The notes under the pieces: model-generated | The model's database searches: none | Told to the model about the DNA's origin: nothing | The model's input: the letters and a program-made list of their open reading frames with translations, nothing else | Shown here: piece by piece, positions 45,553-46,126 of the stretch | Layout of the letters: every line of letters begins with the position of its first letter | Position numbering within the stretch: position 1 is the stretch's first letter | Made by a program: the position numbers and the translations under genes | NCBI RefSeq assembly: GCF_013122565.1 | Contig: NZ_CP053258.1 | Reading direction: 5' to 3' (one strand) | Length of the DNA: 64,000 nt | Origin: Escherichia coli | GTDB taxonomy: Bacteria > Pseudomonadota > Gammaproteobacteria > Enterobacterales > Enterobacteriaceae

Positions 45553-45613
45553 AATAAAATCTCAAACGCCCCGCGTTGCGGAGTTAATAAAATGAAGTAA
45601 AGGTTTATTGTTG

Positions 45614-46126
45614 TTAGCTGAGGCGTTGAGGGCCAGCACGGATGCCTTGCGCCTGGCTTATCCAGACGGGCGTGCTGAATTTTGCTTGTGGGGTAAAATG
45701 CGCATAATCAATGCGATAACCCTTTTCAGACGGCGTGCCTTCCTGGGTCAGCAGCGCGCTGAGCGTATCCAGTAATGCAAGATGTTGCGCCTGAAGAGGC
45801 AAGGATTCTTCAGCAACGGGCAGCGTTTGCGGTGCCATTGCGAAGGAAAGATGACGGATTACCGTGCGAATGGCATGTTGATGCCAGTAATCAACGGAAT
45901 AGTTCGAATTCGGGCGGCGCGTGTTCGCTTCCAGCAAGGCCAATTGACCAAAGTTAACTTTGGCTGAAGGCTCGTGGTTGCGGGTTGTCGCTTTTGCGGG
46001 CGCGTTTGGTTCGGCGGCGTTGCTGAGCGCAGGCAAACCTAAACTCGCCGCAACCATCCCTAATAAGAGATGCGGCCAGAAGTAGCGTTTACCAAACTGT
46101 CGCCAGCGCGTCAGTATTCCACTCAC
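45614..46126 (-). CDS. secM: Secretion monitor / translation-arrest leader peptide SecM
   Basis: GTG start at 46124-46126 (ORF-track start over-extended); 170 aa with signal peptide and arrest motif [17 protein letters not shown]. Confidence 0.9.
45629..45679 (-). promoter_or_regulatory. SecM ribosome-arrest motif coding segment (regulates secA translation)
   Basis: Encodes [17 protein letters not shown]; secA start lies 61 bp downstream of secM stop. Confidence 0.85.

Follow-up and report, generated by a model that had tools for sequence, protein, structure and literature searches.

An intact secM arrest-peptide leader upstream of secA in Escherichia coli, with a predicted helix that would hide the secA Shine-Dalgarno sequence

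The sequence preceding secA in the window (the whole 64,000-nucleotide stretch of Escherichia coli DNA that was analysed) is E. coli secM, an intact and ordinary secretion-monitor leader ORF. We consider it almost certain that this arrest leader controls secA translation by way of an mRNA helix that encompasses the secA Shine-Dalgarno (SD) sequence, with the evidence for arrest and for its release being drawn from published experiments. The secM-secA leader is a known, textbook case: SecM and SecA constitute the founding example of a nascent-peptide 'monitoring substrate' and have been the subject of decades of genetics and several cryo-EM structures. An intact secM gene thus only confirms that the window carries the normal dcw-lpxC-secM-secA region. 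The more useful outputs are the exact coordinates of the stall site and of both helix arms (Table 1), and a corrected pairing model wherein the anti-SD arm lies within secM codons 166-170, outside the spacer.

Table 1. Coordinates in the window of secM, secA and the associated RNA and protein features
Feature	Coordinates	Strand	Basis or remark
secA (901 aa), regulated gene, 'preprotein translocase subunit SecA'	42847..45552	-	ORF list, RefSeq annotation
3' arm of predicted helix, GCGGGGCGUUUGAG, -9..-22 of secA	45561..45574	-	Base-pair table of fold
secM-secA spacer, 61 nt	45613..45553	-	Identical to K-12
secM CDS, GTG start, 170 codons, TAA stop	45614..46126	-	Translation, RefSeq CDS ends, Pfam, NCBIfam
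5' arm of predicted helix, secM nt 497-510 (codons 166-170), coding	45617..45630	-	Base-pair table of fold
Stall site, Gly165 codon GGC (45634..45632) and Pro166 codon CCT (45631..45629)	45629..45634	-	Codons from sequence
Arrest motif codons F150-P166	45629..45679	-	Identical to K-12; fits published consensus
N-terminal export signal, ~codons 1-37	46016..46126	-	Sequence reading and hydropathy scan
Terminator-like hairpin	46278..46330	-	Stem 46330..46324 / 46293..46287 plus inner stem, then U9 (46286..46278)

Identification of secM and its genomic setting

Translation of the minus strand places the secM start codon at 46126-46124 and the stop codon at 45616-45614. An earlier note on this DNA had likewise started the gene at GTG, which agrees both with K-12 (b0097), where the start is also GTG, and with RefSeq, whose annotation of the 100%-identical genome NZ_CP051158.1 puts the secM and secA CDS ends exactly at positions 46126, 45614 and 45552. 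The coordinates and sequence statements of that note all hold, its one omission being the strand (minus).

The encoded protein matches the Pfam SecM family (PF06558) with 195.9 bits (E=4.2e-58; profile positions 1-146 of 147; cut-off 25 bits) and the NCBIfam equivalog NF002799, entitled 'secA translation cis-regulator SecM', with 231.2 bits (E=7.4e-69; profile positions 1-168 of 169; cut-off 100 bits). The window contains a single match to a back-translated QGIRAGP pattern, against an expectation of 0.00, and given this match together with the Pfam and NCBIfam scores, the identification of secM is not due to chance. When an 861-nt query covering the locus was compared with complete E. coli genomes, 5424 of the 5426 gave a match, annotated lpxC / secM / secA, and four were 100% identical.

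The ORF list also contains a 221-aa ORF that begins at a TTG (46279) in the secM frame, which is a mechanical upstream extension. We rejected this start because the GTG at 46126 is the one used by RefSeq, and because the family models begin at the third residue counted from that GTG. Short plus-strand ORFs that overlap secM are likewise mechanical artefacts.

The secA ATG at 45552 is located directly downstream of secM on the same strand. Upstream of secM, the ORF list shows lpxC (ending at 46357) followed by ftsZ, ftsA and ftsQ. These genes form the end of the dcw cluster of E. coli, which is read here in the reverse direction. A hairpin located 27 nt past the lpxC stop codon, within a 76-nt fold (46345..46270) of -24.9 kcal/mol, resembles an intrinsic terminator between lpxC and secM in its predicted structure. 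It may delimit the secM transcription unit on its upstream side, or else be a point of read-through. The consensus terminator scan missed this hairpin because of its long loop. When 45400..46500 was scanned for consensus promoters and terminators, no minus-strand promoter was found ahead of secM, including the stretch between the hairpin and secM; the sole minus-strand match spans the start of secA and is no more than chance would give (1 found versus 1.0 expected).

Several Rfam families match elsewhere in the window, each above its gathering score. An STnc40 match (81.7 bits, gathering score 45) at 42802..42871 on the minus strand covers the final 25 nt of secA and 45 nt past its stop codon. 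PssrA ('Plasmid-encoded Shigella sRNA A') matches at 48518..48607 on the minus strand with 105.5 bits (gathering score 69). This match takes in the 3' end of ftsA, the intergenic region between ftsA and ftsZ, and the opening codons of ftsZ, a chromosomal location that is odd given the family name. The tp2 sRNA family matches at 30916..31029 on the plus strand (103.4 bits), and the nucleoid-associated, REP-derived RNA naRNA4 / CssrE matches at 42304..42381 on the minus strand (78.4 bits). No Rfam family spans the secM-secA leader in a permissive E-value search of 45300..46500.

Export signal, arrest motif and stall site

The SecM N-terminus carries basic residues (R7, R9, K13 and R14), followed by a hydrophobic core at residues 20-34, which is the most hydrophobic 15-mer in a hydropathy scan (mean Kyte-Doolittle 2.07). 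The core is followed by SNA|AE, which we take to be the signal cleavage site on the basis of what is known of E. coli SecM.

The published SecM arrest motif is F150xxxxWIxxxxGIRAGP166 (PMC10987492, PMC10951299). As the earlier note had stated, the gene ends with this motif intact: residues 150-166 equal those of K-12, including the invariant I162, R163 and P166. Its further claim that the motif carries no mutations is right, since the sole residue change relative to K-12, T170S, falls past both the motif and the stall point. In the stalled ribosome, the Gly165 codon occupies the P site and the Pro166 codon the A site (PMC10951299).

The SecM nascent chain of PDB entries 9vvi/9xwo has the same residues 1-165 as the protein described here, and the chain in 8qoa agrees with it over residues 132-165; shorter SecM chains are also present in 3jbv and 3jbu. 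For K-12 SecM, arrest at Gly165/Pro166, Sec-dependent release and secA induction have been established experimentally (PMC10951299, PMC4737659), and the experimentally studied K-12 protein and the SecM described here are identical through residue 169. Synthesis of SecA is induced upon impaired secretion, and the arrest is relieved by the pulling force of SecA/SecYEG-dependent export (PMC10951299, PMC4737659, PMC10987492). A 2026 paper indicates that the ABCF protein YheS also releases the SecM arrest (PMC13249984).

A predicted helix that sequesters the secA SD

A GAG at 45563..45561 (-11..-9) is the only purine-rich stretch at SD distance from the secA AUG, and we have taken it as the putative core of the secA SD. 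When the minus-strand RNA is folded, this trinucleotide is predicted to be part of a 13-bp helix with two one-nucleotide bulges and a 42-nt loop. Nucleotides 497-507 and 509-510 of secM, which run from the second base of the Pro166 codon through the last base of codon 170, pair in this model with positions -9..-22 of secA. The same helix recurs in all the folds computed (91, 151, 261 and 677 nt), wherein the predicted probability that GAG is unpaired in free mRNA is 0.00-0.01. Folding of the 151-nt segment is more favourable than that of its shuffled versions (z=-2.4), and the arm-to-arm duplex is computed at -19.4 kcal/mol, compared with -11.9+/-2.8 kcal/mol for shuffled arms (p=0.017).

These results bear on the assertion of the earlier note that the 61-bp spacer can pair to occlude the secA SD. 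The spacer is exactly 61 nt long and is followed at once by the secA ATG, and folding the region 45540..45640, which had been suggested as a check, recovers a helix that would sequester the SD. However, the 5' arm is secM coding sequence, and the spacer contributes only the loop and the 3' arm that contains the SD; it shows no self-pairing that hides this site. A model in which the secA SD is hidden by an mRNA helix and is opened through SecM stalling has been published for exactly this arrest motif (PMC4737659, PMC10987492, PMC10951299).

Overlap of the predicted helix with the stalled ribosome

For a ribosome whose P site holds the Gly165 codon (nt 493-495), we assumed a conventional footprint of -12..+15, such that roughly nucleotides 481-508 of secM are covered. 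The main portion of the 5' arm (nt 497-507) then falls at +4..+14 relative to the P-site codon, wholly under the footprint. It is this placement of the 5' arm beneath the ribosome stalled at Gly165 that allows the sensor to work. Modelled in this way, the stem-loop formed with secM would hide the secA SD and would be overlapped by the stalled ribosome.

When secM nucleotides 1-508 are blocked to mimic a stalled ribosome with others upstream, the helix is lost from the computed fold and the probability that GAG is unpaired rises to ~0.19-0.46, with GCGGGG re-pairing locally with CUCCGC. Blocking the 28-nt footprint alone, with the mRNA upstream of it unconstrained, lets the SD region re-pair with an upstream CACGCCC segment, and therefore the computed on/off contrast depends on the assumption of trailing ribosomes. 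This CACGCCC (45667..45673, minus strand; secM codons 152-153) is a second anti-SD-like segment that pairs with GGGGCGU of the secA leader. In free mRNA it is placed in silico within a local hairpin (~45678..45633) that covers the arrest-motif codons. Its pairing with the secA leader may be a chance match.

Comparative analysis of the helix

A single DNA-pattern scan of species-representative genomes returned 120 loci, mostly chance matches in GC-rich genomes. Twenty-seven of these are in Enterobacterales-like genomes with the match at the end of an ORF, and 23 of the 27 gave a usable secM-secA junction, making 24 junctions with that of the window. The junctions come from Escherichia, Citrobacter, Enterobacter, Pseudocitrobacter, Klebsiella, Pluralibacter and Mangrovibacter on the one hand, and from Yersinia, Serratia, Hafnia, Edwardsiella, Photorhabdus, Arsenophonus, Brenneria, Pantoea, Rosenbergiella and Acerihabitans on the other.

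Both helix arms are mostly conserved in sequence among the Enterobacteriaceae junctions. Across 12 Enterobacteriaceae sequences, 89.1% of cells pair, versus 31-56% when the partner is slid. A covariation test of the helix in these 12 sequences found two cells changed on both sides, with no measure above shuffles. Compensatory changes to U-A are seen for C505-G(-18) in a soil MAG (L097) and, in one sequence, for C510-G(-22) at the outer helix end. We judge the 12-sequence comparison to be compatible with the helix but not proof of it, and the conservation of the arms could equally stem from coding and SD constraints.

The 12 loci from other Enterobacterales families (L008, L029, L030, L038, L050, L071, L080, L089, L090, L091, L104 and L120) belong to the second set of genera listed above. 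For these, we evaluated pairing between the codons just past the arrest proline and the -24..-4 region of secA, and this duplex is no better than shuffled sequences. A helix model for these other families is thus unsupported by the duplex-versus-shuffle test. Their spacers are longer (55-134 nt), and those of Photorhabdus, Acerihabitans, Yersinia, Edwardsiella, Hafnia and Pantoea have a GC-rich hairpin of their own immediately 5' of the SD. The folds at these loci suggest no obvious way in which a stalled ribosome would expose the SD.

The Ser170 allele

Relative to K-12, the secM gene carries five nucleotide differences, of which four are synonymous. The fifth changes ACC to AGC (45618, minus strand) and gives rise to T170S, four codons past the stall point. 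The AGC codon adds G509-C(-21) and C510-G(-22) to the predicted helix, with a computed duplex energy of -19.4 kcal/mol for Ser170 versus -17.5 kcal/mol for K-12 (a difference of ~ -1.9) and a local MFE of -15.4 versus -13.6 kcal/mol. The 88 nt comprising the secM 3' end and the spacer with Ser170 are found exactly in 1649 of 5424 complete E. coli genomes, O157:H7 included, and the resulting QRLS tail is common to the SecM proteins of this strain, E. albertii, Citrobacter and Enterobacter.

Translation reaches residue 170 only once the arrest has been released, and therefore any effect of Ser170 would act via the RNA. Judging from the modelled energies, the allele could conceivably hold basal secA translation slightly below the K-12 level, or make the switch sharper than in K-12, but we regard this as rather unlikely. 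If true, the K-12 laboratory reference would be a slightly leakier variant.

Proposed mechanism and alternatives

This analysis itself shows the gene, the arrest motif, the signal-like N-terminus, the synteny and a predicted helix that overlaps the footprint of the stalled ribosome. For arrest, the P- and A-site assignment and release by export, we draw on published work on a sequence that is identical through residue 165. On this basis, secM nucleotides 497-510 in free mRNA would pair 9-22 nt upstream of the secA AUG, such that the SD is hidden and secA translation remains basal. A ribosome translating secM would stall with F150...G165 in the exit tunnel, holding peptidyl-tRNA at Gly165 with Pro166-tRNA in the A site. 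By covering the main 5' arm, this ribosome would prevent the helix from forming and make secA initiation possible. Engagement of the SecM signal sequence by SecA/SecYEG would then end the arrest through the pulling force of export, and low secretion capacity would be expected to prolong the arrest and so yield more SecA. The description of secM in the earlier note as a translation-arrest sensor of secretion status is therefore supported, with arrest and release resting on the published experiments.

An intact secM could instead serve mainly to localise secA translation, in that a stalled ribosome bearing a signal sequence would tether the mRNA near the translocon and the helix would be of minor importance. 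A 2005 study by Nakatogawa et al. in Genes Dev is said to have found that SecM aids SecA translocase function by localising SecA biosynthesis, and the weak covariation of the helix, along with the failure of simple predictions to recover it outside Enterobacteriaceae, leaves room for a helix-independent function. However, the strongly predicted helix sits exactly beneath the footprint of the stalled ribosome, and published work credits helix disruption for secA induction (PMC4737659, PMC10987492, PMC10951299). Localisation is moreover a known additional function that is compatible with the role of the helix and is not an alternative to it. We judge an account in which it reduces SD sequestration to a minor contribution to be very improbable.

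Even less credible is the proposal that secA is expressed by mere translational coupling with secM, through termination and reinitiation, and that the arrest peptide is uninvolved in this strain. The two genes are indeed co-oriented and only 61 nt apart, but a gap of this size is long for reinitiation. The perfect conservation of the arrest motif would be unexpected if the peptide were irrelevant, and secA induction is arrest-dependent in published data (PMC10987492, PMC10951299). Control of secA translation by SecM arrest and SD sequestration is accordingly the reading that we favour.

Relationship to known arrest systems

The closest known counterpart is the long-type SecM of K-12 MG1655 (b0097; NP_414639.2), which is encoded at the same lpxC-secM-secA locus, has a GTG start and 170 codons, and shares the arrest motif and the 61-nt spacer exactly, with 169 of 170 residues identical. 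Short-type SecM proteins (PF10818 SecM_small / NF038363) are also signal-bearing leaders upstream of secA, with a C-terminal arrest sequence of the R-x-x-P type (PMC10987492), as exemplified by Mannheimia succiniciproducens SecM with its RGSP arrest end. Unlike these, the protein described here is long, with ~130 residues between signal and arrest site, and it scores below both short-type cut-offs (20.9 versus 26.1 bits for Pfam, and 25.9 versus 45 bits for NCBIfam).

VemP (secDF2), MifM (yidC2), ApdA/ApdP/ApcA and the RAPP-like uORFs follow the same monitoring-substrate logic as SecM (PMC10987492). Their sequences are unrelated to that of SecM and their regulated genes and arrest chemistry are different. 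SecM is likened to this group by mechanism alone and not by membership. What they have in common is that a stalled ribosome melts a stem-loop that hides an SD, and that localisation of the nascent chain ends the arrest (PMC10987492).
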